Source: Nitrospirota bacterium
GTDB lineage: Bacteria; Nitrospirota; Nitrospiria; Nitrospirales; Nitrospiraceae
Reading direction: 5' to 3'
Length of the DNA stretch: 64,000 bases
Assembly: GCA_963741245.1 (NCBI GenBank)
Contig: CAVUHR010000023.1
Location: forward strand, 91,167 to 155,166
The stretch's first letter is position 1; every line of letters begins with the position of its first letter. The translations under genes were made by a program, and so were the position numbers. Below are positions 1,934-61,816 of this stretch, one piece after another. The notes beneath the pieces are model-generated. The model was not told the origin of the DNA and did no database searches. It was given only the letters and a program-made list of their open reading frames with translations.

Positions 1934-2006
1934 GGTGATGAGTATACCCGATCCAGGAGGCGAAGCCGAGTTGACGCTTCAATTCCCCCACTGTTACGGT
2001 GGTGGT

Positions 2007-3194: not shown

Positions 3195-3226
3195 GGCGTC
3201 AGAGGTAAGGGGCCTTCACGTCTTAC
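3161..3226. repeat. Heptamer-array hairpin, (GTNAGGC)n with an inverted arm
   Basis: GTTAGGC GTTAGGG GTAAGGC GTCAGGC..GTGAGGC GTCAGAG GTAAGGG, then GCCTTCAC GTCTTAC. Lies between convergent genes. The left arm overlaps the last codons of the M50 gene. Confidence 0.7.
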
Positions 3227-4667: not shown

Positions 4668-4762
4668 CAGTCTGATTTGGTTCATTTGGTTGCTCAGGTT
4701 GATTTGGTTTATCTGGTTTAACCAAATAAACAAAACAGACCAAACAAACCAAACAACAGTCT
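4668..4762. repeat. Nonamer-array palindrome, (NATTTGGTT)n / (AACCAAANN)n
   Basis: GATTTGGTT CATTTGGTT GCTCAGGTT GATTTGGTT TATCTGGTT -TAA- CCAAATAAA CAAAACAGA CCAAACAAA CCAAACAAC. Confidence 0.8.
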
Positions 4763-7547: not shown

Positions 7548-9103
7548 CGCGATGTGCCTTGGGTCTTCAGCTGCTCTCCGCTGTCTGCCAGCAGTGGCGC
7601 TGTCACTCCGGCAGAGGGGTGGGCGGTCGGCGCGACCTTCGCGCGGGACATGGAGGCAATTGTGTTGGTCACGCTCTGGTGCATACGACTCACAAGCGGA
7701 TTCGGAAAGAGCCCGATCCAAAATATCAACAGGGCCAGTGGCACCAGCGTGGCGAGCTCCCTCAGGTTGAGGTCCCTGAGCTTCGGGAGGTGGTGGAGGG
7801 ATGGGACCCCGAAGACCACTCGCTGGAGCATCCATAGGAGATACGTGGCGGCGAGAATGATACCCAACGACGCAAAGGCAGTCGCGACCTTGCTCCATAG
7901 GAACGTGCCGACGAGCACGAGGAACTCTCCGACAAAACTATTGGTGCCGGGGAGACCGAGCGAGGACAAGGCGAAAATCACCAACAGAACGGCATACTGA
8001 GGCATCGGAGCAGCCAGTCCGACATTGTCGGCGATCAACCGGCTATGGGTGCGCTCATAGATTATGCCGACGCAGAGGAACAGCCCGCCGGTCGTAATCC
8101 CATGGTTGACCATTTGGAGGACGGCTCCTTCGATACCCTGCTGGTTCAAGACAAACAGGCCAAGGGTGACGAACCCCATGTGGCTCACGCTTGAATAGGC
8201 GATCAGTTTCTTGAGATCGACTTGGGCCAGAGCCATATAGGCGCCGTAGATGATCGCGATGATGGAGAGGGCGACCATCATGGGCGTGAAGGAGCGGCTA
8301 GCGTCCGGCAGCATCGGTAAACTGAATCGCAGAAATCCATAGGTGCCCATTTTCAGGAGGATGCTGGCGAGGATGACGCTGCCGGCGGTTGGGGCCTCGA
8401 CGTGGGCGTCCGGGAGCCAGGTGTGAAACGGAAACATGGGGACCTTCACCGCAAAGGCGGCGAAGAACGCCAGGAAGAGCCACGTTTGCAGCGAAGCGGG
8501 GTAGGTGCCCTGGCTTAAGGCGAGGATGTCGAACGTGTGCCCTCCATAAAAGTACAGGACGAGAATGGCAACGAGCAGGAGCAAACTCCCTGCGAGGGTG
8601 TACAGAAAGAACTTGATGGCCGCATAGAGCCGGTTGGACCCTCCCCAGACGCCGATGAGGAGGTACATCGGAATCAACATGGCCTCCCAAAACACATAGA
8701 ACAGCACGAAGTCCAACGCGACGAATACCCCCAGCATGGCCGTTTCCATGACGAGCAACATGGCCATGAAGCCTCGGACTCTTGTGGTGATCGCATCCCA
8801 GGATGCCAAGACACAGAGAGGCATGATTCCGGCGGTCATTAAGACCAGCGGCAGGCTGATCCCGTCAAGACCCAGGCTGTAGTAAATGGGAGGGGCCGTG
8901 ATCCAGGCGACATGTTCGGTGAACTGCATCTGACTGGCCTGTGGATCAAAAAGCCACCAGAGCGGGAGGGCAACGAACAGGTCGGCCAGGGTCGCGGCCA
9001 GCGCAATCCATCGAGCGGTCGATTCCGTCACGAAATACATCGCGATGGCTCCCGCAAGGGGAAGAACGAGGAGAAGTGAGAGCCAGGGAAAGGAACTGGT
9101 CAT
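7544..9103 (-). CDS. nuoM: NADH-quinone oxidoreductase subunit M
   Basis: 519 aa. Typical NuoM/ND4 sequence (WLPDAHVEAPTAGSVILA). Confidence 0.95.
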   Translation of the reverse strand: MTSSFPWLSLLLVLPLAGAIAMYFVTESTARWIALAATLADLFVALPLWWLFDPQASQMQFTEHVAWITAPPIYYSLGLDGISLPLVLMTAGIMPLCVLASWDAITTRVRGFMAMLLVMETAMLGVFVALDFVLFYVFWEAMLIPMYLLIGVWGGSNRLYAAIKFFLYTLAGSLLLLVAILVLYFYGGHTFDILALSQGTYPASLQTWLFLAFFAAFAVKVPMFPFHTWLPDAHVEAPTAGSVILASILLKMGTYGFLRFSLPMLPDASRSFTPMMVALSIIAIIYGAYMALAQVDLKKLIAYSSVSHMGFVTLGLFVLNQQGIEGAVLQMVNHGITTGGLFLCVGIIYERTHSRLIADNVGLAAPMPQYAVLLVIFALSSLGLPGTNSFVGEFLVLVGTFLWSKVATAFASLGIILAATYLLWMLQRVVFGVPSLHHLPKLRDLNLRELATLVPLALLIFWIGLFPNPLVSRMHQSVTNTIASMSRAKVAPTAHPSAGVTAPLLADSGEQLKTQGTSR

Positions 9104-9190
9104 TGGTCATTGGTCAATAGTCAATTGTCATTGGCAAGAGAACAGCTGTTCGTTGTTCCCATTGACCAGTGACCGCTGACCATTGACAAC
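9099..9190. repeat. Heptamer-array hairpin, (GGTCAWT)n, centred on GAACAGCTGTTC
   Basis: GGTCATT GGTCATT GGTCAAT AGTCAAT TGTCATT ... ATTGACC AGTGACC GCTGACC ATTGACA. Fills the nuoL-nuoM spacer and contains the nuoM start codon. Confidence 0.85.
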
Positions 9191-9192
9191 CC

Positions 9193-11091
9193 TTAAAAGA
9201 ATAAGAACATTGTGAAAAGGACCACAGCCCCAAGCGCCATACCGAGCGCATAATGTTGCGTCTGTCCGCTTTGCATGATCCTCAAGAGCCACCCTCCCCA
9301 GGCGATCGCACGGGCCACGCCGTTCACCGCGCCGTCGATCACGTTCACATCCACACGCTTCCACAGTTCGGTTGCGGCAGAAAAGGTGGGGCGGACGATC
9401 GTTCGATCGTAGGCCTCGTCGACATACCATTTATTCAGTGAGGCCTGATACAACGACTGCCACCGTCGAGCAAATTGATCCGGCAGCGCCGGGTGGCGTA
9501 CATAGACATAATAGGCGCCGGCGATCCCGAGTAATCCCATGCCCGTGGCCACCACCATGATGCCTATAGCGGCTCCTCCCTCGTGAGCAGCGCCACCTGC
9601 GTCTGTCTCGAACATTGGTCCAAGAAACTCCGGAATGCCTAGATAGCCTGTGACGATGCTGAGCACTGCCAGGATTATCAGCGGCAGGGTCATGGTGTTC
9701 GAAGGTTCGTGTACGTGGTCTGCATGATGAGGATCAACATGCGAGGGGCCCCAAAATGTGACGAAGACCAGTCTGAAGCTGTAGAACGCCGTCATCAACG
9801 CCGTCACGAGTCCCAGGACCGTCAAGCATTGACCGAGCGGGCCGGTCGACCAAGCCGAGACGAGCAGGTTGTCCTTGCTAAAGAATCCTGACGTCAGGGG
9901 AAATCCTGCAAGCGCGAGCGAGCCCACAACGAACGTCCAATAGGTGACCGGCAATTTGTCTTTTAACCCGCCCATGCGCCGCATGTCCTGCTCGTGATGC
10001 AGGGCGATGATGACGGACCCGCAACCGAGAAACAGGAGGGCTTTGAACGCGCCGTGGGTCAGGAGATGGTACATGCCGGCGGCATAGGCGCCGAGACCAC
10101 AGGCCATGATCATGTAGCCGAGCTGGCTGACTGTCGAGTAGGCCACGACACGCTTGATATCGGTCTGGGTCAAGGCGATGGTCGCCCCAACGACCATCGT
10201 CACTCCGCCGGTGACCGCCACGACCGCCATGGCGACGGGAGACAGGTTATACAGCGGAGCCAATCGCGCGACCATGAACACGCCCGCTGTGACCATCGTC
10301 GCAGCATGGATGAGCGCCGAGATGGGGGTGGGGCCTTCCATCGCATCCGGCAGCCATACGTGGAGCGGCACTTGGGCCGATTTGCCGACTGCGCCGGTGA
10401 ACAATAAGACGCAGATGAGTGTGAGCACGGAGACGTCCCAGGTTCCTCCGAACGGACCGAGGACATTCATGACGTCGCCTGCGGATTCGTGCGCGCGGGC
10501 AAAAATTTCGTCATAGTCGAGTGACCCAAAGCTGTACCAGACCAACAGGAGGCCGAGCATGAAGCCGAAATCGCCGACGCGGTTGACGATGAAGGCCTTC
10601 GTGGCGGCGGAGCAGGCAGCTGGGCGATCGTACCAGTGGCCGATGAGCAAATAGGAACAGAGACCGACTGCTTCCCAGAAGATGAAGAGTTGAAACAGGT
10701 TGTCCGCCATGACCAACATCAGCATCGAGAAGGTAAAGAGGGCGATGTAGCTGAAGAAACGGACATAGCCCGGTTCTCCGTGCATGTACCCGATGGTATA
10801 GACATGGACGAGTGAACTGACGGTTGTGACTAGGAGCAACATCACAGCGGTGAGCCGGTCGATGGAGAAGCCGATGTGAAGATCGAGCATGCCCGAGGTC
10901 AGCCAGGTGTAGAGAGGGAAGCTCGTCTGGTGGCCGCCTGCCACGTCGAAGAAGACCAAGAGCGAGAGCAGCAACGACACGACTACCGCTGGTACGGCGA
11001 CGAGATGGGCCTTGTCCTTGATCCAATGTCCGAAAAGCCCGAGAATCAGGAAGGCGGCGAAGGGAAGCAGTGGAATCAGTGCGTACGTCAT
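9193..11091 (-). CDS. nuoL: NADH-quinone oxidoreductase subunit L
   Basis: 632 aa. ND5/NuoL motifs (VWLPDAMEGPTPISALIHAATMV). Confidence 0.95.
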   Translation of the reverse strand: MTYALIPLLPFAAFLILGLFGHWIKDKAHLVAVPAVVVSLLLSLLVFFDVAGGHQTSFPLYTWLTSGMLDLHIGFSIDRLTAVMLLLVTTVSSLVHVYTIGYMHGEPGYVRFFSYIALFTFSMLMLVMADNLFQLFIFWEAVGLCSYLLIGHWYDRPAACSAATKAFIVNRVGDFGFMLGLLLVWYSFGSLDYDEIFARAHESAGDVMNVLGPFGGTWDVSVLTLICVLLFTGAVGKSAQVPLHVWLPDAMEGPTPISALIHAATMVTAGVFMVARLAPLYNLSPVAMAVVAVTGGVTMVVGATIALTQTDIKRVVAYSTVSQLGYMIMACGLGAYAAGMYHLLTHGAFKALLFLGCGSVIIALHHEQDMRRMGGLKDKLPVTYWTFVVGSLALAGFPLTSGFFSKDNLLVSAWSTGPLGQCLTVLGLVTALMTAFYSFRLVFVTFWGPSHVDPHHADHVHEPSNTMTLPLIILAVLSIVTGYLGIPEFLGPMFETDAGGAAHEGGAAIGIMVVATGMGLLGIAGAYYVYVRHPALPDQFARRWQSLYQASLNKWYVDEAYDRTIVRPTFSAATELWKRVDVNVIDGAVNGVARAIAWGGWLLRIMQSGQTQHYALGMALGAVVLFTMFLFF

Positions 11092-11095
11092 CGGC

Positions 11096-11194
11096 GGTCA
11101 ATAGTCACTGGTCATTGGTCAATGGGTCACGGAGAAAAAGCAGGCTGGAGCCATATTCCCTCACCAATGACTGTTGACCAATGACCGTTGACAT
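11096..11194. repeat. Heptamer-array hairpin, (GGTCAWT)n
   Basis: GGTCAAT AGTCACT GGTCATT GGTCAAT GGGTCAC ... CACC AATGACT GTTGACC AATGACC GTTGACA. Fills the nuoK-nuoL spacer. Confidence 0.85.
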
Positions 11195-11202
11195 CCTCTC
11201 CC

Positions 11203-11508
11203 CTACCATTTCAGCAACTGAAAATCGTCGATGTTGATCGTGGACTTGGCTCGATACAAGGCAATGATGATGGCCAACCCGACCGCGACCTCTGCCGCGG
11301 CGACCGTGAGGGCAAAGAAGACGAAGACTTGTCCTGCGACATCGTGGAAGTACTGCGAAAAGGCAACGAAGTTGATATTCGTCGCGTTCAACATCAATTC
11401 GACCGACAGCAGGATGATGATAATGTTCCGACGAAGGAGGACTCCGATGACTCCGGTCAGGAACACGATGCCGCTTAACACGAGATAGTAGGACAGTGGA
11501 ATGGTCAT
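11203..11508 (-). CDS. nuoK: NADH-quinone oxidoreductase subunit K
   Basis: 101 aa, 3 TM helices, [18 protein letters not shown]. Confidence 0.95.
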
Positions 11509-11580
11509 TGGTCATTGGCCATCAGGTTAAGAACTCGAATGAATCCAGCATCCACTCTTCACCATTGACGCTTCACGCCT
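11501..11580. repeat. Weaker member of the GGTCATT / GCCTNAC hairpin family
   Basis: Left arm GGTCATTGGTCATTGGCC contains the nuoK ATG. Right arm CACCATTGACGCTTCACGCCTTATGCC. Pairing is poorer than at the other loci. Confidence 0.45.
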
Positions 11581-12098
11581 TATGCCTCATGTCCGCCGAT
11601 GTCTTTCTTGGCGAGCATGATCGCACCGATCATCGCCACGAGCAGAATCAAGGACGCCACCTCGAAGGGAAACAAATAGGTGGAATAGAGTACGTCACCG
11701 ATCGCCTCGGAATTACTGGTTCCTCCGACAGTGGTTTCTGTGCCGGTTGCCACGACCGGGGTTGTCCAGCCCTTCATCGCCGTGAGGATGACGGCCTCGA
11801 TGACCAGCGTCACACCCACCGCGGCAGCCATGGGCCATTGTCGATGGTAACGGTCATCCTGTCGCAGGTTCAGCAACATCACAACGAAGAGGTACAGGAC
11901 TAAGATGGCGCCGGCGTAGACGATGATTTGAACGGCTGCGAGGAATTCCGCGTGGAGGGTGACGTAGAGCCCCGCCACATGAAAAAACATAATCAGCAGC
12001 GCCAGCGCACTGTAGATGGGATTGCGCACCGCGACGACAAGCACCGATGCGGCGGCGATTACAAATGCAAAATAGAAAAAGAACACCTGTTCCATCAC
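11580..12098 (-). CDS. nuoJ: NADH-quinone oxidoreductase subunit J
   Basis: 172 aa, ND6/NuoJ-like TM protein in the operon position between nuoI and nuoK. Confidence 0.9.
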   Translation of the reverse strand: MMEQVFFFYFAFVIAAASVLVVAVRNPIYSALALLIMFFHVAGLYVTLHAEFLAAVQIIVYAGAILVLYLFVVMLLNLRQDDRYHRQWPMAAAVGVTLVIEAVILTAMKGWTTPVVATGTETTVGGTSNSEAIGDVLYSTYLFPFEVASLILLVAMIGAIMLAKKDIGGHEA

Positions 12099-12183
12099 AC
12101 GTCTTCCTCTGTGCCGCTAGTTAGGATGCCGGCAAAGTTTGCCGGTCCCATAGACTGTGGTGCGTAAAGCGCGAGAACCGGCA

Positions 12184-12253
12184 GGTCTCTCTTGTTTATC
12201 TGGTCTGTCTCGTTGTTTGGTTGAACCAGATAGACCAGATGAACCAGCTCAAC
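12184..12253. repeat. Nonamer-array palindrome (GGTYTRTYT type)
   Basis: CTTGTTTATCTGGTCTGTCTCGTTGTTTGGTTGAACCAGATAGACCAGATGAACCAG, in the nuoI-nuoJ spacer. Confidence 0.75.
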
Positions 12254-12313
12254 CCTCGCCTGTCCCGCTTATCTCGCTGTTTCCGCTATTCCCGTCGACC
12301 TCGCACAGGCGAT

Positions 12314-12853
12314 TCAGCCGGGTTTTTGCGGCAGGTGCTTGAACGCGACGTTGAAGAACGCCACATTCGGGTGTTGGAGCTCCAACTGCTTCTCGCGAAC
12401 CGGGAACGACCGGTCGCCGATGGCGAGCAATTGTTCCTTGTTGAGGTTCAGCTGCCGCTTATCGTACACCGCCCACTCGTATTCGCGAGTCATGCCGAGG
12501 GCATCCACCGGACAGGCATCGACGCACATTCCGCAAAACAGGCAGCGGGTCATGTCCATGTAATATTCTTTCGCGTAGCGCTTCGTCGGCTCGCCCGGCA
12601 CTTCCGCGCTGACCACGCGAATCACCCGCGACGGGCAGGCGGCTTCGCACAGGTCGCAGCCGACACACTTTTCCGTCCCGTCGTCGTACCGCAACAGGGC
12701 CAACATCCCGCGATAGTTGTCCGGTAGCGTCCGCTTTTCGTGCGGGTATTGCAGGGTGATCGGCTTGTAATGGATCAAATGCGAGATCGTCACTTTCATC
12801 CCGACGAGGATTTCATAGAAAGTGATGGTCTTGATCCAAGTCTTAAATGTCAT
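12314..12853 (-). CDS. nuoI: NADH-quinone oxidoreductase subunit I (2x[4Fe-4S])
   Basis: CVGCDLCEAACP and CLFCGMCVDACP ferredoxin motifs. Confidence 0.95.
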   Translation of the reverse strand: MTFKTWIKTITFYEILVGMKVTISHLIHYKPITLQYPHEKRTLPDNYRGMLALLRYDDGTEKCVGCDLCEAACPSRVIRVVSAEVPGEPTKRYAKEYYMDMTRCLFCGMCVDACPVDALGMTREYEWAVYDKRQLNLNKEQLLAIGDRSFPVREKQLELQHPNVAFFNVAFKHLPQKPG

Positions 12854-12860
12854 TCTTGCC

Positions 12861-12940
12861 CAGCCCTCAGCGATCAGCTTTCAGCAGTCAACTTCACCAA
12901 GATTCACATCCAAAGCTGACAGCTGATGGCTGACAGCTTG
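12861..12940. repeat. Heptamer-array hairpin, (CAGCNNT)n / (ANNGCTG)n
   Basis: CAGCCCT CAGCGAT CAGCTTT CAGCAGT ... AAAGCTG ACAGCTG ATGGCTG ACAGCTT. Fills the nuoH-nuoI spacer. Confidence 0.8.
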
Positions 12941-12945
12941 TTGCT

Positions 12946-14058
12946 TCAACGCGGAAAGACATACACGGTAATGGCCGTGATGATGATGTTGGCCAGCGCG
13001 ATCGGCAACATGACCTTCCAGCCGAACCGCATCAATTGATCGTAGCGCAGTCGGGGCAACGTGGCGCGTATCCAGACGAATAGGAAGAGGAAAAAGTAGA
13101 CTTTCGCCGCAAACCAGGCGATGTGTTCCACCCAGGCCAGCTGCTCGAGGCCGACATACCCAAAGATCGTGCCAGGATAGGGGGCGTTCCAGCCACCCAA
13201 GAACAGCGAGGCGGCGACGCAGGACACGAGAGTCATGCTGGCGTATTCCGCGCTGACGAAGAAGGCAAACCGCATGCCGCTATATTCCGTAAAGAACCCG
13301 GCCACGAGTTCGCTTTCCGCTTCCGGCAGATCGAATGGGATACGATTGGTCTCGGCCACGGAAGAAATGATGAAGACGACAAAGGCGAAGATTTGGGTAT
13401 GGATAGGAAAGAATCCGTCGGGGCGTGCTCCCCAGATGAACCAATGCCAGAAGCCGCCTGCCTGGGCTTCTGTGATCTCCACGAGGCTCAGAGATCCTGC
13501 CAACAGCAGGACGCCGACGATGGCCAGCCCGACGTTCAACTCGTAGCTGATGACCTGGGCCGCGGCGCGCAAGCCTCCCAGCAGTGAGTACTTGCTGTTG
13601 GATGACCAACCTCCCAGGATAATGCCGTAGGCGCCGATCGAGGCAATCGCCAGGATATACAAGATCCCGATGTTGATGTCAGCGACGACGAACGGTTTGA
13701 CCGTGATCCCAAAGATGTCCATGGTTATGTTCGGGCCGAAGGGGATGACGGCGAATCCGATCATGGAAACGACCATGGTCAGCATCGGCGCCAGGGCAAA
13801 CATGGCCTTGTTCGCGCCGGCCGGCGTGATGTCCTCCTTGAAGAACAATTTGATGCCGTCGGCCACCGGTTGAAGGATTCCATAGGGACCGACTTCCATC
13901 GGGCCCATGCGATCCTGCATCCAGCCGAGCACCTTCCGCTCGAAATAGGTCATGGTCGCAACCGTTATCATCACGATACCCATCTCCGCCAGTATCTGGG
14001 CGAGCGAAACTGCAAGTCGCAAGCTTAGTTCAGTCACGACAGCACTCCCGTATGACAA
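12946..14058 (-). CDS. nuoH: NADH-quinone oxidoreductase subunit H
   Basis: 370 aa. ND1/NuoH motifs (ERKVLGWMQDRMGP, AETNRIPFDLPEAESELVAGF). Confidence 0.95.
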   Translation of the reverse strand: MSYGSAVVTELSLRLAVSLAQILAEMGIVMITVATMTYFERKVLGWMQDRMGPMEVGPYGILQPVADGIKLFFKEDITPAGANKAMFALAPMLTMVVSMIGFAVIPFGPNITMDIFGITVKPFVVADINIGILYILAIASIGAYGIILGGWSSNSKYSLLGGLRAAAQVISYELNVGLAIVGVLLLAGSLSLVEITEAQAGGFWHWFIWGARPDGFFPIHTQIFAFVVFIISSVAETNRIPFDLPEAESELVAGFFTEYSGMRFAFFVSAEYASMTLVSCVAASLFLGGWNAPYPGTIFGYVGLEQLAWVEHIAWFAAKVYFFLFLFVWIRATLPRLRYDQLMRFGWKVMLPIALANIIITAITVYVFPR

Positions 14059-14085
14059 GTGGGAACATCATTGGTTCTCGTCCGC

Positions 14086-16755
14086 TTACGTTGTTTTCAT
14101 CACCGACACGGACACTGTCCGACAGGATGGGACTTTCGTATCCGGATCGATGACACAGTCAAAGAGTTGCAGGGCCTCCTGCGCAAAGTGATCGGGGAGC
14201 CAGGCCAATCCCTCGGGCACGCGATCGAATACTTTCACCGTGGTCGTGAATTCGCCGCGGCTGTTCGAGAGGCGAACTCGATCTCCCGTGCCGAGGGCGC
14301 ATTGAGCGGCATCCACGGGATTCATCTGCAAGAACCCGCTCGGTTCGATCTGCAGTAGACCCTTCGAATGGGTCGACAGCTTCCCTGAATGGAACAGGCT
14401 CTGGACCAACCCAAGCTGGACCGTTCCCTCAGGACGCACGGCTCGTGCGGGCAGAGTATACCGAGTTGCAAAGTCGTGGCGATATCCCTCGTTCACGTAT
14501 CGGTCGACGGCGGCAGGATCCACTGAGGGAGGGATCGGCGATGGGCCGAGCGATCCGTAACCGGGAATCACCGCCCGGATCTCTTTGAGGATTTCCTTGG
14601 AATCGCCATATTCCAACGGAGCACCGAGGAAGACTGATAGTGCCGACAGGATTTCCCAGTCAGGGCGGCTGTCCCCCACCGGATCGATCGCAGGCCGAAC
14701 GGCCTGGACATGGCCCTCGGTATTGGTGAAGGTCCCGGCTTTTTCCATGGCGGAGGCTGCCGGCAGTACCACATGAGCGAGCGCAGCCGTTTCCGTGAGA
14801 AATAGTTCCTGGCACACAAGGAGATCGAGTTTGCCCAGTGCCTCTTTGACTCCGGTCTGGGGCGGAAGGCTCCCGACAGGATTTTCTCCGATGATGAAGA
14901 GGCTCTTGATGATCCCGGCTTGCGCACGGTCGATCATCTCGATGAGTGTGGCTCCTGCCGCCAGAGGGAGTTCCTCTTTCCAGGCACGAGTCATCTGGGC
15001 GCACGCGTCCTGATCGGTGAGGTCGAGCGCTCCCGGCAGCAGTTCCGCGATCGCTCCCATTTCAACCGCCCCTTGATCGTTATTCTCTTCCGCCAAGGGA
15101 GCAAAGCCGCAGCCCTGTGCGGTCAACTTCCCTGTCAAGAGAAGCAGATCCAGGAGATTGAGACAGATGCCATAGCCGCCTTGGCTGCGTAACAGAACCT
15201 GGCCGGCCAGTGCCACGACGCGGCGTCCTCCAGCCACGGAGGCGGCCATGTGAGCGAATGATTCGCGCGATATCCCTGTGCTCAGAGCCAGATCGTCCCA
15301 GGCCAGTTGCTGGACCGCTTGAGAGACGGCCGAGACATAGTCTGACGCCCGTTGCCGGATTGTGCTGTCGATATGGTTTTCCTCAACCACAGCCTTCAGC
15401 AGGCCGAGGACGGCTGCTCCGAACTGGGACGGTGCCACACAGAGATGTTGCTGCGACAGGTTGGTAATGTTGCTGATCGTGCCGATTGCAGGCTGGATTG
15501 CCTCGATCGTCAACAATGTCGCTTCGTGTTTCTTGACGGCTTCTTTTATTTTAAGTCCGGTAATTGGATTGGTTTCGGTGATGTTGGTGCCGACCAGGAG
15601 GAGCACGTCCGCTTGCGTGATGTCCTCAAACGTCACGGTCCAGCGATGCGTGCCTTGCACCAAACGCATGGCCTGCACCCCGTTGACATGGCCGTACCGC
15701 GCGCTGCTATCGAGGTTATTGGTTCCGATCGTGAGTCGCATGAACTTCTGGAACAGATAGAGTTCTTCGTTGGTACAGCGGCCGGAAATCAGTCCGCCGA
15801 AGGCCTGCGGGCCATGTGCTAACTTGAGCCGCTTGGTCTGTTCGGCCACAAATTCCAACGCCTCTTCCCACGTGGCTTGGACCAGCGCACCGTTCCGGCT
15901 GATCAACGGATGGGTCACTCGGCTGGGATGGCTTGTTGCGTGAAATCCAAAAAACCCGCGCGCACACAGGTCGCCGTTGTTTCGACCGGCACCCTGGGCG
16001 CTGTTGACCTCGATCAACTCCTGGTCCTTGGTTTGGACCGTGATCTGGCAGCCGTCGCCGCAAAAGGTGCAGACTGTGTCGGCGCGTTTGAGCATCCAGG
16101 GACGGTATTCGTACATCGAGAGCCGGCTGGTGATGGCGCCGACCGGGCAAATCTGCACGCAACCGCCGCAGAATTCGCAGTCCAAAGGATGGGCGCCGAA
16201 GTGCTTGATCTCGGTCATCGTGCCTCGTCCGACCGGGGCGAGGGCCTTGACGTCCATGACCTCGTCGCAGTAGCGGACACAACGCAAACATTGCACGCAA
16301 CGGTTCATCTGCGTTTCGATAAGGGGGCTGAAATATTCTTTCTGGAAAATGCGCTTGGTCTCGACAAATCGACTGGCAGTCGCGGTGTATTCATGGGAAA
16401 AATCCTGGAGGTCGCATTTCCCGCCCTGATCGCAGACCGGGCAATCCAACGGATGATTGGCCAGGATGAATTCGAGCACCGACTTGTGGGCGTCGTGAAC
16501 GACCGTCGTGGCGGTCCGAACAGCCATGCCCTCGGTCGCCACGGTGCTGCAAGAGGTCTGGAGTTTCGGCATCTTTTCGACTTCGACCAGGCACATGCGA
16601 CAGTTCGCATCCGGCTTGAGTTTTGGATGGTAGCAGAAGTGTGGAACCATCACGCCGACCCGGCGAGCGGCTTCGATCACCAGTGTGCCTTTCGGCACCG
16701 AGATGGGAATGCCGTCGATAGTCAATCGAACCATTTCTGTCGTGGTATTAGCCAT
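14086..16755 (-). CDS. nuoG: NADH-quinone oxidoreductase subunit G (molybdopterin-fold, Fe-S)
   Basis: 889 aa. N-terminal 2Fe-2S/4Fe-4S cysteine motifs (CYHPKL..CRMCLVEV; CPVCDQGGKCDLQ). Confidence 0.95.
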   Translation of the reverse strand: MANTTTEMVRLTIDGIPISVPKGTLVIEAARRVGVMVPHFCYHPKLKPDANCRMCLVEVEKMPKLQTSCSTVATEGMAVRTATTVVHDAHKSVLEFILANHPLDCPVCDQGGKCDLQDFSHEYTATASRFVETKRIFQKEYFSPLIETQMNRCVQCLRCVRYCDEVMDVKALAPVGRGTMTEIKHFGAHPLDCEFCGGCVQICPVGAITSRLSMYEYRPWMLKRADTVCTFCGDGCQITVQTKDQELIEVNSAQGAGRNNGDLCARGFFGFHATSHPSRVTHPLISRNGALVQATWEEALEFVAEQTKRLKLAHGPQAFGGLISGRCTNEELYLFQKFMRLTIGTNNLDSSARYGHVNGVQAMRLVQGTHRWTVTFEDITQADVLLLVGTNITETNPITGLKIKEAVKKHEATLLTIEAIQPAIGTISNITNLSQQHLCVAPSQFGAAVLGLLKAVVEENHIDSTIRQRASDYVSAVSQAVQQLAWDDLALSTGISRESFAHMAASVAGGRRVVALAGQVLLRSQGGYGICLNLLDLLLLTGKLTAQGCGFAPLAEENNDQGAVEMGAIAELLPGALDLTDQDACAQMTRAWKEELPLAAGATLIEMIDRAQAGIIKSLFIIGENPVGSLPPQTGVKEALGKLDLLVCQELFLTETAALAHVVLPAASAMEKAGTFTNTEGHVQAVRPAIDPVGDSRPDWEILSALSVFLGAPLEYGDSKEILKEIRAVIPGYGSLGPSPIPPSVDPAAVDRYVNEGYRHDFATRYTLPARAVRPEGTVQLGLVQSLFHSGKLSTHSKGLLQIEPSGFLQMNPVDAAQCALGTGDRVRLSNSRGEFTTTVKVFDRVPEGLAWLPDHFAQEALQLFDCVIDPDTKVPSCRTVSVSVMKTT

Positions 16756-16760
16756 GGGCG

Positions 16761-16846
16761 TCGTTATTCGTTAAACGTTAACTGTTAAACGATGAGACCA
16801 GAATCCATCCTATTCGATTAACGAAGAACGATTTACGTTTAACGTC
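16761..16846. repeat. Heptamer-array hairpin, (CGTTNNN)n
   Basis: CGTTATT CGTTAAA CGTTAAC TGTTAAA ... TTAACGA AGAACGA TTTACG TTTAACG. Fills the nuoF-nuoG spacer. Confidence 0.8.
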
Positions 16847-16847
16847 T

Positions 16848-18155
16848 TCAATGCCTCGCCCCCGCTGGTTCCGGCATGATCAGATTCGTTGCCTCCGCTT
16901 CATGAATCAGCGTGACGTACTCAGGCCGCCAATGTTTGAGCGTGCTCATAATCGGCGCCACTTCCGCATCGCCGAACGCGCAGACCGTTCGGCCCTCGAT
17001 GTTCTTGCATAGATCGACCAAGGTTTCAAGGTCCTCCATCCGACCTCGCTTCGCGACGATTCGGCGCATGGTTTGCACCAGCCAGGCGCTTCCCTCGCGG
17101 CAGGGGCTGCACTTGCCGCAGGACTCATGATAGAAAAACTCCATGAGGCGGAGCGCGGCCCACACCATATCCGTGCCCTCTTCCATCACGGTCACGCCGC
17201 CGGAGCCGAGCATGGAGCCGGCGGCGGCAACGGATTCAAAATCGAGTTTGACGTCGAGGTGGTTCGGCGTGAGGAATGGCGCTGACGCACCCCCCGGGAT
17301 GAAGGCCTTGAGCGGTTTGTCGGAGCGCATGCCGCCGGCTTGCTCATAGATCAATTCGCGGAAGGTAACCCCCATCGGCACTTCGTAGTTTCCCGGCCGT
17401 TTCACATGGCCGCTGACGCAGAAGATTCTGGTGCCGGTGCTCTTCGGCGGGGAGCCGATCGATGCGAACCATTCGGGGCCCCGGCTAATGATGTGAGGAA
17501 GATTTGCCAGGGTCTCGACGTTGTTCACCACGGTCGGTTTGTTGTAGAGACCATGTGTCGCAGGGAAGGGGGGCTTGACGCGCGGCAAGCCGCGCTTGCC
17601 TTCGAGCGACTCCAGCAATGCCGTTTCTTCTCCGCAGATATAGGCGCCGGCGCCTCGGTGCACCCACACATTGGCGGTGATTCCCGTGCCCAGGATGTTG
17701 GTTCCGATATAGCCGGCGGTCCGTGCTTCGGCGATCGCCTGTTCCAAGATCCTGGCCCCGAGGACGAATTCGCCTCGTATGTAAATGTAGGCGGACTCTG
17801 CTCCGATCGCGTAGCAAGAGAGCACGATGCCTTCTAATAGCTGATGGGGATCTCGTTCAATGAGCTGGCGGTCCTTGAACGTGCCTGGTTCGCTCTCGTC
17901 CGCGTTGCAACAGAGATAGCGCGGGCCCTGGTAGCCCTTGGGCAGGAATCCCCATTTCACACCGGTCGGGAAGCCTGCGCCACCTCGCCCCCGGAGCCCC
18001 GACTTCAACACTGTGGCGGTGACCTCGGGTGGCGGCACTTTCCCCACGACCTTGCGGAGCGCCTGGTAGCCACCTGCGCGCTCGTAATCTTGGAGCGAAC
18101 CGGTATAGCCTGGCTGCATCATATTCTTGAGCAATATAAGTTCGTGCTTCGGCAT
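16848..18155 (-). CDS. nuoF: NADH-quinone oxidoreductase subunit F (FMN/NADH-binding)
   Basis: GLRGRGGAGFPTG, YICGEETALLESLEG and ESCGKCSPCREG. Confidence 0.95.
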   Translation of the reverse strand: MPKHELILLKNMMQPGYTGSLQDYERAGGYQALRKVVGKVPPPEVTATVLKSGLRGRGGAGFPTGVKWGFLPKGYQGPRYLCCNADESEPGTFKDRQLIERDPHQLLEGIVLSCYAIGAESAYIYIRGEFVLGARILEQAIAEARTAGYIGTNILGTGITANVWVHRGAGAYICGEETALLESLEGKRGLPRVKPPFPATHGLYNKPTVVNNVETLANLPHIISRGPEWFASIGSPPKSTGTRIFCVSGHVKRPGNYEVPMGVTFRELIYEQAGGMRSDKPLKAFIPGGASAPFLTPNHLDVKLDFESVAAAGSMLGSGGVTVMEEGTDMVWAALRLMEFFYHESCGKCSPCREGSAWLVQTMRRIVAKRGRMEDLETLVDLCKNIEGRTVCAFGDAEVAPIMSTLKHWRPEYVTLIHEAEATNLIMPEPAGARH

Positions 18156-18164
18156 CTTTCTTTC

Positions 18165-18240
18165 GTTAGGCGTCAGGCGTGAGGCGTTAGGCGAAACCCA
18201 GGGGCCTGCCTACCCCTAACGCCTTACGTTTCACGCCTCA
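18165..18240. repeat. Heptamer-array hairpin, (GTNAGGC)n / (GCCTNAC)n
   Basis: GTTAGGC GTCAGGC GTGAGGC GTTAGGC ... CCCTAAC GCCTTAC GTTTCAC GCCTCAC. The right arm overlaps the last five codons of nuoE. Confidence 0.85.
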
Positions 18241-18763
18241 CGGCATTTGCAGGTTCAGGCCACATGAACGGGCCGGTCTTGAGCGAACAGGTCCCGTCTT
18301 TTTTGAGATCGACCAGGATTTGGTCGAATTTATCTTCTGTGAGCCGTTCGTAATAGTCCTCGTTGGCCTGCATCATCGGCGCGGTGCCACAGGCGGCGAG
18401 GCATTCGACCGTGCTGAGGGTAAAGAGTCCATCGGCCGTCGTCTCACCAGGTCCGATTCCGAGTTTCGTCTTGACCCACCCGATGACTGTATCCGATCCG
18501 GCCAGCGCGCACATCAGAGACTTGCAGACTTGAAGATGAAATTTCCCCACGCGCTTGAGATTGAGCATCGTATAGAACGTGGCCGTCTCATAGACTTGGG
18601 GCGGGGTCAGACGCAAGAGTCCTGCGATCTCCTTCATCGCCGCCTCGGACACGAAGCCCTCGTCCTGTTGCGCCAGGTACAGCAATGGAATCAACGCCGA
18701 GCGCTTCACCGGATACCGTGAGATGATCTCGTCAATTTCTTTCTGATATTTTTCTTTTAACAT
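18224..18763 (-). CDS. nuoE: NADH-quinone oxidoreductase subunit E (2Fe-2S)
   Basis: LQVCKSLMCALAG...VECLAACGTAPMM. The ORF opens at 18811; ATG 18763 (MLKEKYQKEIDEIISRYP) fits the family N-terminus. Confidence 0.9.
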   Translation of the reverse strand: MLKEKYQKEIDEIISRYPVKRSALIPLLYLAQQDEGFVSEAAMKEIAGLLRLTPPQVYETATFYTMLNLKRVGKFHLQVCKSLMCALAGSDTVIGWVKTKLGIGPGETTADGLFTLSTVECLAACGTAPMMQANEDYYERLTEDKFDQILVDLKKDGTCSLKTGPFMWPEPANAVRRET

Positions 18764-18870
18764 CACACTCTCTCTGTGACAGTGGCGTGAGAGAGCCTCT
18801 ATTGCGCGCATCGACCGAGTACCTTCTGAGCGTGCGCGGTCTGCGAGCAGGGAGGCCTCTCATGTCACGG

Positions 18871-20622
18871 TCACCTATCGCACTCCCCCATCACGACGTC
18901 GTAGGTCCCGAAGATCGTAATGATGTCGGAAATCAGGTAGCCTCGCGCCATGTGGTCGAAGGCGCCCATGTGTACAAATGAAGGCGAGCGAATTTTCAGT
19001 CGGTAAGGACGGGCGCTGCCGTCGCTGACGATGAAAAATCCCAATTCCCCTTTTGGGGCTTCGGTTGCACAGTAGGTCTCGGCCTTCGGTGGCTTGATGC
19101 CTTGTGTGTAAATGATGAAATGATGGATCAAGCTTTCCATGTCCCGCATGACCAGCTCCTTGGGCGGCGGGATATATTGCGGCGCCTCGGCCATGGTCGG
19201 CCCCGGCGGCAGCTGATCGAGACATTGTGCGATGATCCTGGCGCTCTGCCGCATTTCTTCCATGCGGATCCAGTACCGGTCGTAGGTATCGCCGTTCTTG
19301 CCGATCGGCACTTCCCAATCGACTTTGTCGTACACACCGTAGGGCTCGGCCTTGCGGACATCGTAGGCGACGCCCGACCCGCGCAAGACCGGCCCGGTGC
19401 AGCCGAAGTTGATCGCGTCCTCGGCCGAGAGCACGGCCACGCTCTTCGTGCGACCGAGCCAGATGCGATTCGACGCGATGAGCGAATCGTATTCCTTGAC
19501 CTTCTCGGGAAAGGTATCGAGGAACGCCTTCATCCGTTGGACCAGCTCGGGAGTGAAATCGCTATCGACACCGCCGATGCGATAGTAGTTCAGGGTCAGA
19601 CGGGCCCCGCAGAGCTTTTCGAACATGTCCAATAGTATTTCGCGCTCCCGGAATGTCCAGAAGAACACGGTCATGGCGCCAATATCGAGGGCCTGCGTGC
19701 CGAGCCAAAAGAGGTGCCCAATGATGCGTTGCATCTCGGCCACGATGGTCCGGATGTATTCGGCTCGGACCGGCACCGTGATCTCGAGGAGTTTTTCCAC
19801 GGCACGCACGTACGCGTAGTTGTTGGACATGGCACAGACATAGTCGAGCCGGTCCGTGTGCGGGATGATCTGCATGTAGGTCAGCCCCTCGGACAATTTT
19901 TCGACGCCTCGATGGAGGTAGCCGAGGTCCGGTGTGGCCTTCACAATCCGTTCGCCGTCCAACACGAGCACGACACGCAACACTCCGTGGGTGCTCGGAT
20001 GTTGTGGCCCCATGTTCAGCAGCAATTCCTCTTTCCGTCGGGAGCCGGGTACGCTAGGTTCGGCGCGAAAGGCGTTTTTCTGCTCCTCGGAGATTTCGCT
20101 CTCAGTGACGTCGAGCGGGGGCTCGTCCAATCTCGGGATGAAGTCGAACTGGCTGCGCCAGCCACGCCCTTCGGTCGGAAAGTCTTTTCGCAACGGGTAT
20201 CCCTCGGTATAATCCTCCGGCAACAAAATGCGCCGGAGATCGGGATGGCCGGAAAAGTGAATGCCCATCATGTCGTACACTTCGCGTTCCAGGAAGTCGG
20301 CTCCCTTCCAGATGCCGGTGACCGACGCGATCATCGGATCGTCCTCGGTGATGCGCGCCTTGAGGCGAAGACGTTGCTGAAGGGGGAGCGAGTGCAAGTG
20401 GTAGACAACTTCGAACCGCAGCTGATCTTCGGGATAGTCGACCGAGCAGATATCGGTGAGATGGTCAAAGGCTGCCTCCGGCGCATCGTGCAAATAGCGC
20501 GCAATATCCAGCAGGCGCGCGGCGGCCACACGCGCGGACAGCTCCCCGCGATCCTTGTCCTCGTGGATCGACAGGACCGCGTCGGGGAATTGGGCCTTGA
20601 GTGTTTCGAGAAGTGAATGCAT
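18871..20622 (-). CDS. nuoCD: Fused NADH-quinone oxidoreductase subunit C/D
   Basis: 583 aa. The N-terminal ~170 aa is NuoC-like (ADFLEREVYDMMGIHFSGHPD). After a linker comes NuoD (LNMGPQHPSTHGVLRVVL...). Single ORF. Confidence 0.9.
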   Translation of the reverse strand: MHSLLETLKAQFPDAVLSIHEDKDRGELSARVAAARLLDIARYLHDAPEAAFDHLTDICSVDYPEDQLRFEVVYHLHSLPLQQRLRLKARITEDDPMIASVTGIWKGADFLEREVYDMMGIHFSGHPDLRRILLPEDYTEGYPLRKDFPTEGRGWRSQFDFIPRLDEPPLDVTESEISEEQKNAFRAEPSVPGSRRKEELLLNMGPQHPSTHGVLRVVLVLDGERIVKATPDLGYLHRGVEKLSEGLTYMQIIPHTDRLDYVCAMSNNYAYVRAVEKLLEITVPVRAEYIRTIVAEMQRIIGHLFWLGTQALDIGAMTVFFWTFREREILLDMFEKLCGARLTLNYYRIGGVDSDFTPELVQRMKAFLDTFPEKVKEYDSLIASNRIWLGRTKSVAVLSAEDAINFGCTGPVLRGSGVAYDVRKAEPYGVYDKVDWEVPIGKNGDTYDRYWIRMEEMRQSARIIAQCLDQLPPGPTMAEAPQYIPPPKELVMRDMESLIHHFIIYTQGIKPPKAETYCATEAPKGELGFFIVSDGSARPYRLKIRSPSFVHMGAFDHMARGYLISDIITIFGTYDVVMGECDR

Positions 20623-20713
20623 GGTTAATGGTCGATGGTTATGGTTAATGGTCGATGGTTAAATGGTCAGTAGCGCTGGTCTCTTCATCAACCATTGACC
20701 ATCAGCCATCATT
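20623..20713. repeat. Repeat hairpin with a 20-nt tandem duplication
   Basis: GGTTAATGGTCGATGGTTAT / GGTTAATGGTCGATGGTTAA, then ATGGTCAG ... CATCAACCATTGACCATCAGCCATCA. Fills the nuoB-nuoCD spacer. Confidence 0.8.
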
Positions 20714-21188
20714 TTACAAAGACCTTTTCCCGCTGAATCTTTTCCTGTAACTTCAGCAATCCATCGAGCAACGCTTCCGGACGCGGCGGACAGCCCGGCA
20801 CATAGACATCGACCGGAATAATCTGGTCGACGCCTTGGACCACCGCGTAACTATTGTAGTGGTTGCCTGAGGTGGCGCAGGAGCCCATAGAAATGACATA
20901 CCGCGGTTCCGGCATCTGGTCGTAGATGCGGCGGATCACCGGCGCCATCTTGCGCGCCACAGTGCCGGCGATGATCATGAGATCGGCCTGCCGTGGCGAG
21001 GCTCGAAAGACCCCGGCGCCGAAACGATCCATGTCGTACCGCGATGCCACAGTCGCAATCATTTCGATGGCGCAGCAGGCCAGGCCGAACGTCATCGGCC
21101 ACAAAGCCGACTTCCGGGACCAATTCACGACCGCGTCCAGATTGGTCGTCAGAATATTCGCCTCAAATTGTCTCTCCAAAAAGCTCAT
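20709..21188 (-). CDS. nuoB: NADH-quinone oxidoreductase subunit B
   Basis: [10 protein letters not shown] and GSCATSGN...[12 protein letters not shown] 21188 (MSFLERQF) has GGAG 9 nt upstream. The longer ORF (to 21266) would run through the repeat. Confidence 0.9.
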
Positions 21189-21202
21189 GTCGCTTCGCTC
21201 CA

Positions 21203-21280
21203 GTTCTGAGTGCTGAGTTCTGAGTCCTGAGTTATGAGTTGCGTCTGGAAACTCAGCACACAGCACTTAGCACTCATCAC
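21203..21280. repeat. Heptamer-array hairpin, (GAGTNCT)n
   Basis: GTTCTGA GTGCTGA GTTCTGA GTCCTGA GTTATGA ... ACTCAGC ACACAGC ACTTAGC ACTCATC. Fills the nuoA-nuoB spacer. Confidence 0.85.
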
Positions 21281-21297
21281 TGCATGTCTTCGGCGCG

Positions 21298-21669
21298 CTA
21301 GTCCCATTCGAGAGCCCCCTTCTTCCAGGCGTACCAGAATCCGACCAGCAGGATGCTGATAAACACGAGCATTTCGATGAGTCCCAGTAGGCCGAGCGAC
21401 TGAAATCGGACGGCCCAGGGGATCATAAAAATGATCTCGATATCGAAAATGACGAACAGCATCGCGATGATGTAGTAGCGCATCGGGAACTGGATGCGCG
21501 CATCGGAAAACAGCGGGCTTCCGCTTTCATAGGGGGCCAGCTTGGCTCGATAGGGACGACTCGGCCGAACGAGCGAGCCGGCGAGCAGCGCGAAGGCGCC
21601 GAAGGCAACACCAACGCCGATGAACAGCAGGATCGGCAGATAATTCAGCGGAATCGATTCGTTACCCAT
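21298..21669 (-). CDS. nuoA: NADH-quinone oxidoreductase subunit A
   Basis: 123 aa, 3 TM helices, YESGSPLFSDARIQFPMRYYIIAMLFVIFDIE. Confidence 0.95.
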   Translation of the reverse strand: MGNESIPLNYLPILLFIGVGVAFGAFALLAGSLVRPSRPYRAKLAPYESGSPLFSDARIQFPMRYYIIAMLFVIFDIEIIFMIPWAVRFQSLGLLGLIEMLVFISILLVGFWYAWKKGALEWD

Positions 21670-21678
21670 ACAGGCCCC

Positions 21679-21783
21679 GTGAAACGTGAAGCGTTAAGCG
21701 CATGAACGTCAATGGAACTGGTCAATTGTTATTGGAGAAGGCTGATGGTCTCCCGATTGACCAATGACTGTTGACCATGGACC
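21679..21783. repeat. Composite heptamer-array hairpin (GTGAANC then GGTCAAT types)
   Basis: GTGAAAC GTGAAGC GTTAAGC ... GTCAATT GTTATTG ... ATTGACC AATGACT GTTGACC ATGGACC. The right arm lies inside the C-terminal codons of the MidA-like gene. Confidence 0.7.
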
Positions 21784-34968: not shown

Positions 34969-34975
34969 GGAAGCC

Positions 34976-35060
34976 TGTCTGGTTCATTTGGTCTGTCTGG
35001 TCTGTCTGGTTTATTTGGTTGAACGAAACTAACCAGATGGACCAGATAACCAGACAGACC
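34976..35060. repeat. Nonamer-array palindrome (TGGTYTRTY)n
   Basis: TGGTTCATT TGGTCTGTC TGGTCTGTC TGGTTTATT TGGTTGAAC..AACCAGATGG ACCAGATA ACCAGACAGACC. Directly after the SmbP-like gene. Confidence 0.8.
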
Positions 35061-61065: not shown

Positions 61066-61133
61066 GCGAGAAAACGCAGAGATTTTAACTATCCATTCTG
61101 GAATGTCTTGACCTCATCTGCTGATTCACGTAA

Positions 61134-61799: not shown

Positions 61800-61816
61800 A
61801 CAATCATATATGTAAA

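Follow-up and report, generated by a model that had tools for sequence, protein, structure and literature searches.

The window analysed in this study is a stretch of 64,000 nucleotides from a Nitrospirota bacterium (contig CAVUHR010000023.1), and its minus strand carries a 14-gene nuo operon (A, B, fused CD, E to N), with a gene for a MidA-type methyltransferase (Pfam Methyltransf_28) upstream of nuoA and secA further upstream. The NuoH encoded here was 95% identical to that of a Nitrospirota metagenome-assembled genome and 79% identical to that of Candidatus Nitrospira defluvii, which places the window in the Nitrospiraceae. Nearly every junction of the operon is filled by a repeat element, typically a fold-back in which an array of tandem degenerate heptamers is followed by a centre and by an array of the complementary word. 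These elements represent a known kind of repeat architecture that is real and statistically solid, newly documented in Nitrospira and unusually dense in one operon. Junctions are denoted below by the genes on either side (L/M lies between nuoL and nuoM), and the genes are located as follows.

21298-21669, minus strand, nuoA
~20709-21190, minus strand, nuoB
18871-20622, minus strand, nuoCD
18224-18811, minus strand, nuoE
16848-18155, minus strand, nuoF
14086-16755, minus strand, nuoG
12946-14058, minus strand, nuoH
12314-12853, minus strand, nuoI
11580-12098, minus strand, nuoJ
11203-11508, minus strand, nuoK
9193-11091, minus strand, nuoL
7544-9103, minus strand, nuoM
from ~7550, minus strand, nuoN, in ATGA overlap with nuoM

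The open reading frame (ORF) called for nuoN (6060-7898) overlaps nuoM by ~350 nt and looks like an overcall.

Tandem Repeats Finder (TRF) placed period-7 arrays at 12 positions of the window, 11 of which are in nuo spacers. A stringent autocorrelation scan of the window detected 7 period-7 arrays as compared to 0 in each of 20 dinucleotide shuffles, and the tandem-heptamer pattern pointed out in an initial annotation of this DNA is, therefore, not a product of chance. In the same scan, period 9 also exceeded the shuffles (2 arrays versus 0), and periods 4-6, 8 and 10-15 showed no excess of arrays over them. Arrays were paired by an inverted-repeat finder at A/B, E/F, F/G, H/I, K/L and L/M. 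Each spacer was then folded as RNA on the mRNA strand against 200 shuffles, and seven of them (A/B, B/CD, E/F, H/I, K/L, L/M and I/J) gave z-scores of -3.2 to -4.5, with 0 of the 200 shuffles equalling the fold. The arrays and elements of the window are listed here.

3160-3189, 9097-9134, 9159-9187, 11096-11125, 11502-11522 and 12914-12938, period-7 arrays (TRF)
16769-16791, 18164-18193, 20628-20659, 21202-21240, 21251-21281 and 21678-21700, further period-7 arrays (TRF)
21670-21728, minus strand, midA/nuoA spacer with a single direct array (21678-21700) of 3.3 CGTGAAG-type units and traces of GGTCA and TGACC
21201-21233 and 21250-21282, minus strand, arms of the nuoA/nuoB fold-back with the word GAGTNCT / NACTCAG in ~4.7 and ~5.7 units
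20622-20710, minus strand, nuoB/nuoCD fold-back with a 5' arm (~20685-20710) of ~3.5 GATGGTN units (TRF 20621-20668)
18215-18242 (5' arm on the mRNA) and 18164-18191 (other arm), minus strand, nuoE/nuoF fold-back with the word GGCGTNA / TNACGCC
16761-16847, minus strand, nuoF/nuoG element with two arrays of NNCGTTA / TAACGNN units (array 16761-16788 in the autocorrelation scan)
12861-12938, minus strand, nuoH/nuoI fold-back with the word TCAGCNN / NNGCTGA and an inverted repeat of 21 nt, 86% complementary
12181-12254, minus strand, nuoI/nuoJ period-9 fold-back with CTGGTYNAT / RAYAGACCA (TRF at period 9 and inverted repeats)
11502-11522, minus strand, nuoJ/nuoK spacer with one direct array, TGGTCAT three times on the plus strand (CCAATGA on the mRNA), reaching the nuoK start codon
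11095-11192, minus strand, nuoK/nuoL fold-back with the word GGTCANT / ANTGACC and a centre of ~43 nt (TRF and inverted repeats)
9097-9187, minus strand, nuoL/nuoM fold-back with the word GGTCANT / ANTGACC and an inverted repeat of 22 nt, 86% complementary
3160-3226, plus strand, direct array of ~7 GGCGTNA units that ends in a short inverted tail, between convergent genes
4673-4756, strand unassigned, period-9 fold-back of the TGGTYTRTY family (TRF and inverted repeat; z = -5.2)
34978-35054, strand unassigned, period-9 fold-back of the TGGTYTRTY family (TRF; z = -7.8)
54649-54760, strand unassigned, period-9 fold-back of the TGGTYTRTY family (TRF and inverted repeats; z = -4.8)

The strongest heptamer fold was that of L/M (z = -4.51), followed by E/F (z = -4.27; arms of 28 nt, 82% complementary), B/CD (z = -4.08), K/L (z = -4.06), H/I (z = -3.78) and A/B (z = -3.20; inverted repeat of 33 nt, 82% complementary), each with 0/200 shuffles as good. 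The arms at F/G were weakly complementary (18 nt, 83%; z = -0.68, 49/200 shuffles as good), no significant hairpin was obtained for the midA/A spacer (z = -0.44, 67/200), and none was found at J/K (z = -0.31, 65/200). The initial annotation had placed a hairpin at nine nuo junctions; six of these hold, F/G has both arrays with a weak stem, and midA/A and J/K have single direct arrays. A tenth element, proposed at 3161-3226, is present as an array but is mainly direct; its minimum free energy (MFE) was -28.6 on the plus strand (z = -3.2) versus -13.4 on the minus strand. The described plan of degenerate heptamers, centre and reverse-complement heptamers, its intergenic position and the change of word from locus to locus were borne out here and across Nitrospirales, and the five words given were confirmed in the window. 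The dimensions had been misjudged: the arms do not have equal unit numbers (e.g. ~3.5 versus ~7 at B/CD), centres measured 9-43 nt instead of 10-25 nt, and stems ~25-35 bp instead of 35-45 bp.

The arms do overlap the ends of genes, as had been noticed. At E/F, the final codons of nuoE and its stop lie within the 5' arm of the fold-back, and the array at 3160-3226 extends over the 3' end of the gene for an M50/CBS peptidase (1839-3194; Pfam). The 3' arm at B/CD (~20622-20670, ~7 TNAACCA/TCGACCA units) ends at the nuoCD start codon, the last ATGACCA unit at L/M provides the start codon of nuoM, and the nuoK start is reached by the J/K array. ATG and stop codons recur every 7 nt in the arrays and give rise to spurious ORFs and wrong start calls. 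The real nuoB start is the methionine of MSFLER, and the ORF at 20709-21266 has a 26-codon false N-terminal extension within which the A/B fold-back sits; similarly, a spurious 136-aa ORF (11105-11515) lies over nuoK (11203-11508) because of ATGs in the K/L arrays. Seeding of arrays from ATGA start/stop overlaps, with the start codon in word register, fits L/M, J/K and B/CD in the window and was rejected as a general rule, as only 14% of spacer arrays reach a start codon.

No part of the window matched Rfam 15 at the gathering threshold, and scans of the window for tRNA and tmRNA found nothing. An intrinsic-terminator scan returned 16 terminator-like sites as compared to 14.1 expected, with 0 at the hairpins, and a promoter scan of the window likewise gave no excess over chance and nothing at the hairpins.

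The I/J fold-back (z = -4.31, 0/200 shuffles as good), which is missing from the initial annotation, is one of four in the window (4673-4756, 12181-12254, 34978-35054 and 54649-54760) that are built of 9-mers. Unlike the heptamer elements, this family uses a single word, TGGTYTRTY / RAYARACCA, at all loci and genomes sampled, and it was also found at L001, L005, L006, L009, L012, L019, L055, L082 and L094 of the comparison set described below. The copy at 34978-35054 (also delimited as 34960-35070) folds far better on the plus strand (MFE -57.1 versus -42.7 kcal/mol), and the centre of that at 54649-54760 holds a 14-nt tandem repeat, AAATAAACATGACA, in 2.6 copies (54685-54721). Period-8 and period-9 fold-backs of the same plan occur among related nuo loci. 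Two other observations were made in nuo spacers. A direct purine-rich run of period 9, GGGAATAGC GGAAACAGC GAGATAAGC GGGACAGGC, adjoins the I/J fold-back at 12253-12293, and a similar run is found at L001 and L003. The CD/E spacer (18764-18870) forms a long non-heptamer hairpin (z = -2.8) that is 90-93% identical to L002, L004 and L005, above the identity of their 4-fold sites (0.69-0.84), and only 0.39-0.59 identical to other relatives, a distribution that looks mosaic and recombinant.

The comparison set consisted of 80 nuo loci from Nitrospirales genomes (L001-L080) and 80 from metagenomes. Across the 404 nuo spacers of at least 60 nt at the Nitrospirales loci, period 7 was the strongest periodicity in 46%, and z was below -2 in 34%, a share that reached 68% where period 7 was strong. 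Of 229 period-7 arrays, 16% were deep in ORFs though 84% of the bases are, leaving 84% of the arrays outside deep coding sequence; period-5 and period-6 arrays tracked the coding background. When 53 pairs of adjacent arrays were compared, 58% had reverse-complement words at six or more of the seven positions as compared to 4% of random pairs, and direct word similarity was at background only. Similarly, two or more reverse-complement words lay no further than 90 nt away for 44% of arrays, as compared to 3% for a distant control, and a recognisable inverted partner was found for about half of all arrays. The median inter-arm gap was 21 nt and the median element 80 nt, and nuo spacers showed a bimodal length distribution, with short ones of up to 29 nt and long ones of 80-99 nt (the latter comprising 177 of 798 spacers). 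As many as 71 distinct canonical words were counted among 143 arrays. Arrays occurred in 16% of co-directional, 18% of convergent and 16% of divergent spacers, and they are, thus, not confined to operons. The density of stringent period-7 arrays per 100 kb differed between groups as follows.

Clade nearest to the window, ~21
Other Nitrospirales, 10
Low-GC Nitrospirales, 0.7
Metagenome nuo loci with NuoK 65% identical or less, ~10

Inverted heptamer pairs were also present at distant metagenome nuo loci (L112, L113, L118, L136, L143, L157 and L159; NuoK 54-62% identical), with words such as GGGATTT, CGTGAYN, GGAATTA, CCAAAAA and GGGGTTC. This genome is, therefore, not alone in having the architecture.

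Comparison of orthologous junctions revealed that the elements come and go between relatives. The L/M spacer is 89 nt in the window and 9 nt in L005 and L011; F/G is 92 nt versus 12 nt in L006, L008 and L010; and J/K is 71 nt versus an ATGA overlap in L001, L003, L004, L005, L011 and L075. In L011 and L075 the junctions are compact from F/G through K/L, and in L011 at L/M too. Where an orthologous spacer is filled, the word may be another one: K/L spacers of similar length hold at least four different words, including GGTCANT in the window, GCTATNA in L001 and L005 and CGTGAAN in L002 and L004, and in L006 and L009 they hold two arrays that are not complementary. Most spacers of the window could not be aligned with those of its closest relatives (identity 0.35-0.55, versus 0.64-0.84 at 4-fold sites), and the similarity is distributed as a mosaic, with H/I being 0.86 identical to L006 and 0.39 to L001. 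L/M is the only window element that aligns across relatives. An indel survey, restricted to strictly filtered alignable spacer pairs, showed lengths of 7, 14 and 21 nt, or of 8 and 16 nt, for 11 of the 20 indels that reached 4 nt or more, with unit-sized events being the commonest of the larger indels. Several of the unit-sized indels, not all, resembled a neighbouring unit at 0.7-0.86 identity. The unit number changes independently in each arm, and arm lengths were uncorrelated (rho = 0.04). A scan of metagenomes for same-species strain variants yielded none closer than 97% NuoK identity.

Different junctions were found to share sequence well beyond the heptamer. There were 24 non-orthologous spacer pairs that share a 20-mer and 127 that share a 16-mer, as compared to 0.1 and 1.8 expected from 7-nt block shuffles. 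The shared part is ~30 nt long, i.e. one arm, and a specific order of variant units is kept in it. Thus, midA/A of L053 and CD/E of L062 are identical over 31 nt, and midA/A and CD/E are near-identical within L062. The 20-mer TTCACGAGCGACGAACGACG, with up to 3 mismatches, occurs at six different junctions overall, namely at K/L in 10 genomes (such as L002, L004, L007, L010, L037 and L038), at F/G in 6 (such as L020, L021 and L026), at A/B in 6 (among them L020, L023, L026, L037 and L040) and elsewhere, usually on the arm adjoining the downstream start codon. Inside the window, sharing is modest (13-17 nt among the GGTCANT elements). Since arm-sized stretches are common to different junctions, copying between loci is suggested. 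At the level of sequence this arm sharing is REP-like behaviour, i.e. like that of repetitive extragenic palindromic (REP) sequences, from which the initial annotation had set the elements apart.

Selection on RNA structure was looked for in several ways. No bias was seen between sense and antisense folding (196 versus 206 spacers, p = 0.39). At L/M, 1 of 29 pairs was compensatory, and 107 of 500 shuffles did as well. Permuting the order of units in one arm changed complementarity from 0.782 to 0.773, no single pair being significant and the pooled Wilcoxon test marginal (p = 0.04). As the permutation hardly alters complementarity, facing units are not mirror images of each other, and the degenerate positions become mismatches. 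The main stem typically starts at the stop codon (median 0 nt) and ends ~7 nt before the next start, and only 33% of long spacers contain a Shine-Dalgarno-like word.

Based on these results, we propose, at a probability of roughly 55%, that the elements belong to a fold-back repeat family found throughout the lineage, the Nitrospira counterpart of the heptanucleotide-repeat (STRR-type) hairpins of cyanobacteria; it would be remodelled by slippage and copied from locus to locus, and would accumulate in tolerant junctions and produce stem-loops in the nuo transcript as a side effect. An element is ~80 nt long and consists of an array of 3-7 degenerate units, usually heptamers but sometimes 8- or 9-mers, a centre of ~20 nt and an array of the complementary word. 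The elements are located in non-coding DNA, mostly as the filling of junctions that would otherwise be compact, and their gain, loss and replacement outpace change at synonymous sites. Their units would turn over by replication slippage, and arms or whole elements may be copied between loci by a transposition-like route or by ectopic conversion between elements. They could persist in the nuo operon because operon-internal junctions contain no promoter or operator to be disrupted. As the inserted fold-back would bring the upstream stop and the downstream start together again, the junction would gain an intercistronic stem-loop and keep its compact geometry. Effects on mRNA stability, processing and translational coupling would then be a by-product or a weak secondary benefit and not a conserved control specific to nuo. 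Of the roles considered in the initial annotation, the footprint of a repeat-generating mechanism fits best, given the unit-length indels, the independent arms, presence/absence and word replacement and the lack of unit-level mirror symmetry; a role in setting subunit stoichiometry is disfavoured by junctions that are filled or empty in close relatives and by the lack of covariation and of a sense-strand folding bias.

Several observations weigh against this proposal. Arrays were 2- to 5-fold commoner in nuo-internal than in flanking spacers: 6/9 versus 0/18 in the window, 87/459 (19%) versus 22/220 (10%) in Nitrospirales (p = 0.0025) and 15/71 (21%) versus 3/62 (5%) in distant taxa (p = 0.0095). 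Tolerance could explain this enrichment, because operon-internal junctions have no promoter to break, and so could a function in a long polycistronic mRNA. The L/M element was 0.72-0.87 identical to its orthologues as compared to 0.64-0.81 at the 4-fold sites of the same genomes, being higher in 9 of 9 comparisons, and at least one element may, therefore, be under constraint. Each word family has a fixed polarity of its arms (CGT-arm first 10:2, GGTCA-arm first 6:0), and the last 22 nt ahead of start codons show a 4- to 6-fold enrichment of TAACG, AACGA and TTGAC, beyond that of Shine-Dalgarno-like words; a neutral model predicts neither. As the cause of arm order, the content of stop codons in the words was considered and dropped, since the GGTCA and CGT families behave oppositely. 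Copying between loci is deduced from shared sequence alone. No target-site duplication was recognisable when the empty and filled sites of K/L, F/G and L/M were compared, no transposase was present among ten window ORFs scanned against Pfam, a scan that included no search aimed at RAYT (REP-associated tyrosine) transposases, and no mobility signature of other kinds was found for the elements. Furthermore, all sampled DNA is nuo-centred (the 64-kb window and the nuo loci), many of the loci are phylogenetically related so that counts are not independent events, and the gene calls outside nuo are greedy ORFs and crude.

The most serious rival, which we consider possible but on the whole doubtful, is that the elements are functional intercistronic mRNA structures, in which the fold is selected and the sequence is not, so that the words drift. 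Such structures could protect against 3' exonucleases, serve as RNase III-type processing sites or pair stop with start for translational coupling, and the last would aid equimolar synthesis of the complex I subunits; by analogy, the same roles have been proposed for hairpins of cyanobacteria (PMC2670836). The far better folding of seven window spacers than of their shuffles, the z below -2 in 34% of the long nuo spacers, the stem that spans from the stop codon to ~7 nt before the start, the scarcity of Shine-Dalgarno-like words (33%), the nuo-internal enrichment in both Nitrospirales and distant taxa, the conservation of L/M beyond 4-fold sites and the retention of arm complementarity while words differ between orthologous spacers are all consistent with it. 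However, a junction filled in one genome is compact in a close relative (L011, L075), the sense strand folds no better than the antisense strand, no covariation is seen at L/M, units that face each other lack compensation, the two arms vary in unit number independently, K/L of L006 and L009 has two non-complementary arrays, and arrays are as frequent in convergent and divergent spacers. The fit of the stem to stop and start is also not decisive, because a fold-back of ~80 nt inserted into a compact junction gives that fit automatically. An origin purely in place, by slippage and hairpin-templated (quasi-palindrome) repair at each junction with neither copying nor function, would account for the common unit-length indels, the high diversity of words and the unrelated centres of same-word elements in the window, and polymerase slippage has indeed been put forward for the heptamer excess (Mrazek 2007, as cited in PMC4692102). 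It is rendered improbable by the 24 non-orthologous pairs with a common 20-mer where 0.1 were expected, the 31-nt identities with unit order kept and the presence of TTCACGAGCGACGAACGACG at six different junctions, and a sharply preferred element size is unexpected from open-ended slippage.

Binding at the DNA level, by a nucleoid-associated protein or global regulator on phased arrays or by a single-strand binder with a 7-nt footprint such as a cold-shock protein, appears to be improbable to a similar degree. Some words and longer motifs do recur across junctions and genomes, arm polarity is fixed, and the period-9 family has one word everywhere sampled; elements of Geobacter have been interpreted in this way (PMC2700814), and CspB has been reported to bind one protein per heptamer (PMC4679880). 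On the other hand, one or a few sequence-specific proteins could hardly recognise 71 words in 143 arrays, words are exchanged at orthologous sites, close relatives differ in whether a site is occupied, and the divergent, promoter-bearing spacers have no excess of arrays. In a bolder reading, which is unlikely in our view, the mobile unit would be the arm-sized (~30 nt) array of 7-9-nt words, and it would belong to an undescribed system, REP-like or foldback-like, that operates in Nitrospirota, Cyanobacteria, Geobacter and distant metagenome taxa and so spans several phyla. Such units would preferentially colonise the compact junctions of long operons such as nuo, their hairpins would be kept as stop-start bridges that preserve or enforce translational coupling, and the fixed polarity and the start-adjacent ACGA/TGAC words would be part of that function. 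Chance, low complexity or an assembly artefact can practically be dismissed, since no stringent period-7 array arose in any of 20 shuffles, 0/200 shuffles matched the seven hairpins, and the same features are present in independent assemblies including complete chromosomes, e.g. that of N. defluvii (FP929003).

Two features of the window lie apart from the elements. The G+C content falls to 0.48-0.50 at 60001-64000, as compared to a window average of ~0.57, a drop that may point to foreign or island DNA. At 412-536, in and just after a small ORF (271-528), there is a 25-nt inverted repeat (88% complementary, arms 75 nt apart) that is not heptamer-based.

The classical short tandemly repeated repetitive (STRR) sequences of cyanobacteria have few words (CCCCAGT, TTGGTCA and CAACAGT), and we take TTGGTCA to be a rotation of the commonest word family here. 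The initial annotation had regarded the pattern as no described repeat class, and this view has to be revised in the light of matches in Nostoc (PMC3488679), at hupS-hupL (STRR; PMC2670836) and in Geobacter metallireducens (PMC2700814). Heptanucleotide repeats are over-represented in many bacterial genomes and have been known in cyanobacteria since 1990, and their origin and function are not understood (PMC2670836, PMC4692102). In the P6b stem-loop of the Nostoc tRNA-Leu intron, degenerate heptanucleotide repeats of Class 1 and Class 2, differing in unit number, base-pair as a hairpin (PMC3488679), and 7-bp STRR hairpins, located in the hupS-hupL gap and also upstream of hoxW, have been proposed to act in transcript stability or translational coupling (PMC2670836). 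The elements described here agree with these in their tandem degenerate 7-nt units, in complementary arrays that form a long imperfect hairpin, in alternative words, in a length that varies by whole units and in non-coding, intergenic and intra-operon sites (PMC3488679, PMC2670836). They differ in the phylum (Nitrospirota), in a much larger vocabulary (71 words in 143 arrays), in the filling of nearly every junction of one operon and in the 8-mer and 9-mer classes alongside.

G. metallireducens has arrays of tandem 7-, 8- and 9-mers paired on opposite strands that are absent from G. sulfurreducens, one pair lying between proB and proA; class 1 is GTTGCTYN x4, class 2 TCTCCGTS[Y] x3 and class 3 MTYCTGA x5, and the authors read them as sites of an IHF/HU-type regulator (PMC2700814). 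In both systems, 3-5 tandem 7-9-mers are paired on opposite strands at variable distance, the arrays lie in intergenic DNA (in Geobacter also between the co-operonic proBA genes), and they are lineage-specific, being present in one species and absent in a relative (PMC2700814); the class 3 word resembles the A/B word of the window, NTYCTGA. In Geobacter, however, each class has one consensus and tens of copies, which only the 9-mer family does here. The heptamer repeats of Xanthomonas (GGGAATC) and Nostoc (GGGGAYT) (Rehm et al. 2015, PMC4692102) are also heterogeneous arrays enriched in intergenic DNA, with some convergent plus/minus pairs able to form stem-loops or cruciforms, and at a given gene pair the arrays differ in length and sequence from one close species to another (PMC4692102). 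They are G-rich and have been studied as quadruplex formers, whereas the words here lack G-tracts, and pairing is exceptional there and the rule here. Direct TAACTGA repeats are found in Beggiatoaceae, cyanobacteria and Bacteroidetes, those of Beggiatoaceae lying just upstream of start codons (MacGregor 2015, PMC4679880); as here, they are overwhelmingly intergenic, often end just upstream of start codons, with flanking genes that lack a common function (PMC4679880). Unlike the elements here, they consist of one word in direct arrays (one inverted set in ~170) and form no hairpin.

REP sequences, together with bacterial interspersed mosaic elements (BIMEs) and REP doublets forming hairpins (REPINs), are extragenic, often intra-operon and commonly inverted hairpin pairs, like the elements here, and have conserved units of ~30 nt common to many loci, to which the arm-sized sharing seen here points as well. 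They have one or a few genome-wide consensuses, no 7-nt periodicity and a link to RAYTs, as compared to the many, fast-changing words here; yet set beside the single REP consensus, the diversity of 71 words in 143 arrays coexists with shared ~30-nt arms, one shared 20-mer and a 9-mer family of one word. REPs act as stabilisers of mRNA 3' ends. Miniature inverted-repeat transposable elements (MITEs) and eukaryotic foldback transposons are small discrete elements that are present or absent per site, with inverted arms of short tandem subrepeats around an unrelated centre. Inverted arms and empty and filled sites are found here too, but neither a target-site duplication nor conserved termini nor a partner transposase could be recognised, and copies are alike in one arm only.

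A literature search found no paper describing heptamer repeat elements in Nitrospira. Nitrospira, thus, offers a well-sampled second system outside cyanobacteria, with dozens of genomes in which a given junction is empty, filled or occupied by another word, and comparison among them makes the rate and mode of gain, unit slippage and inter-locus copying testable. The arrays also rewrite the last or first codons of real genes. In nitrite oxidisers, work on the expression of complex I should reckon with long stem-loops between most cistrons.

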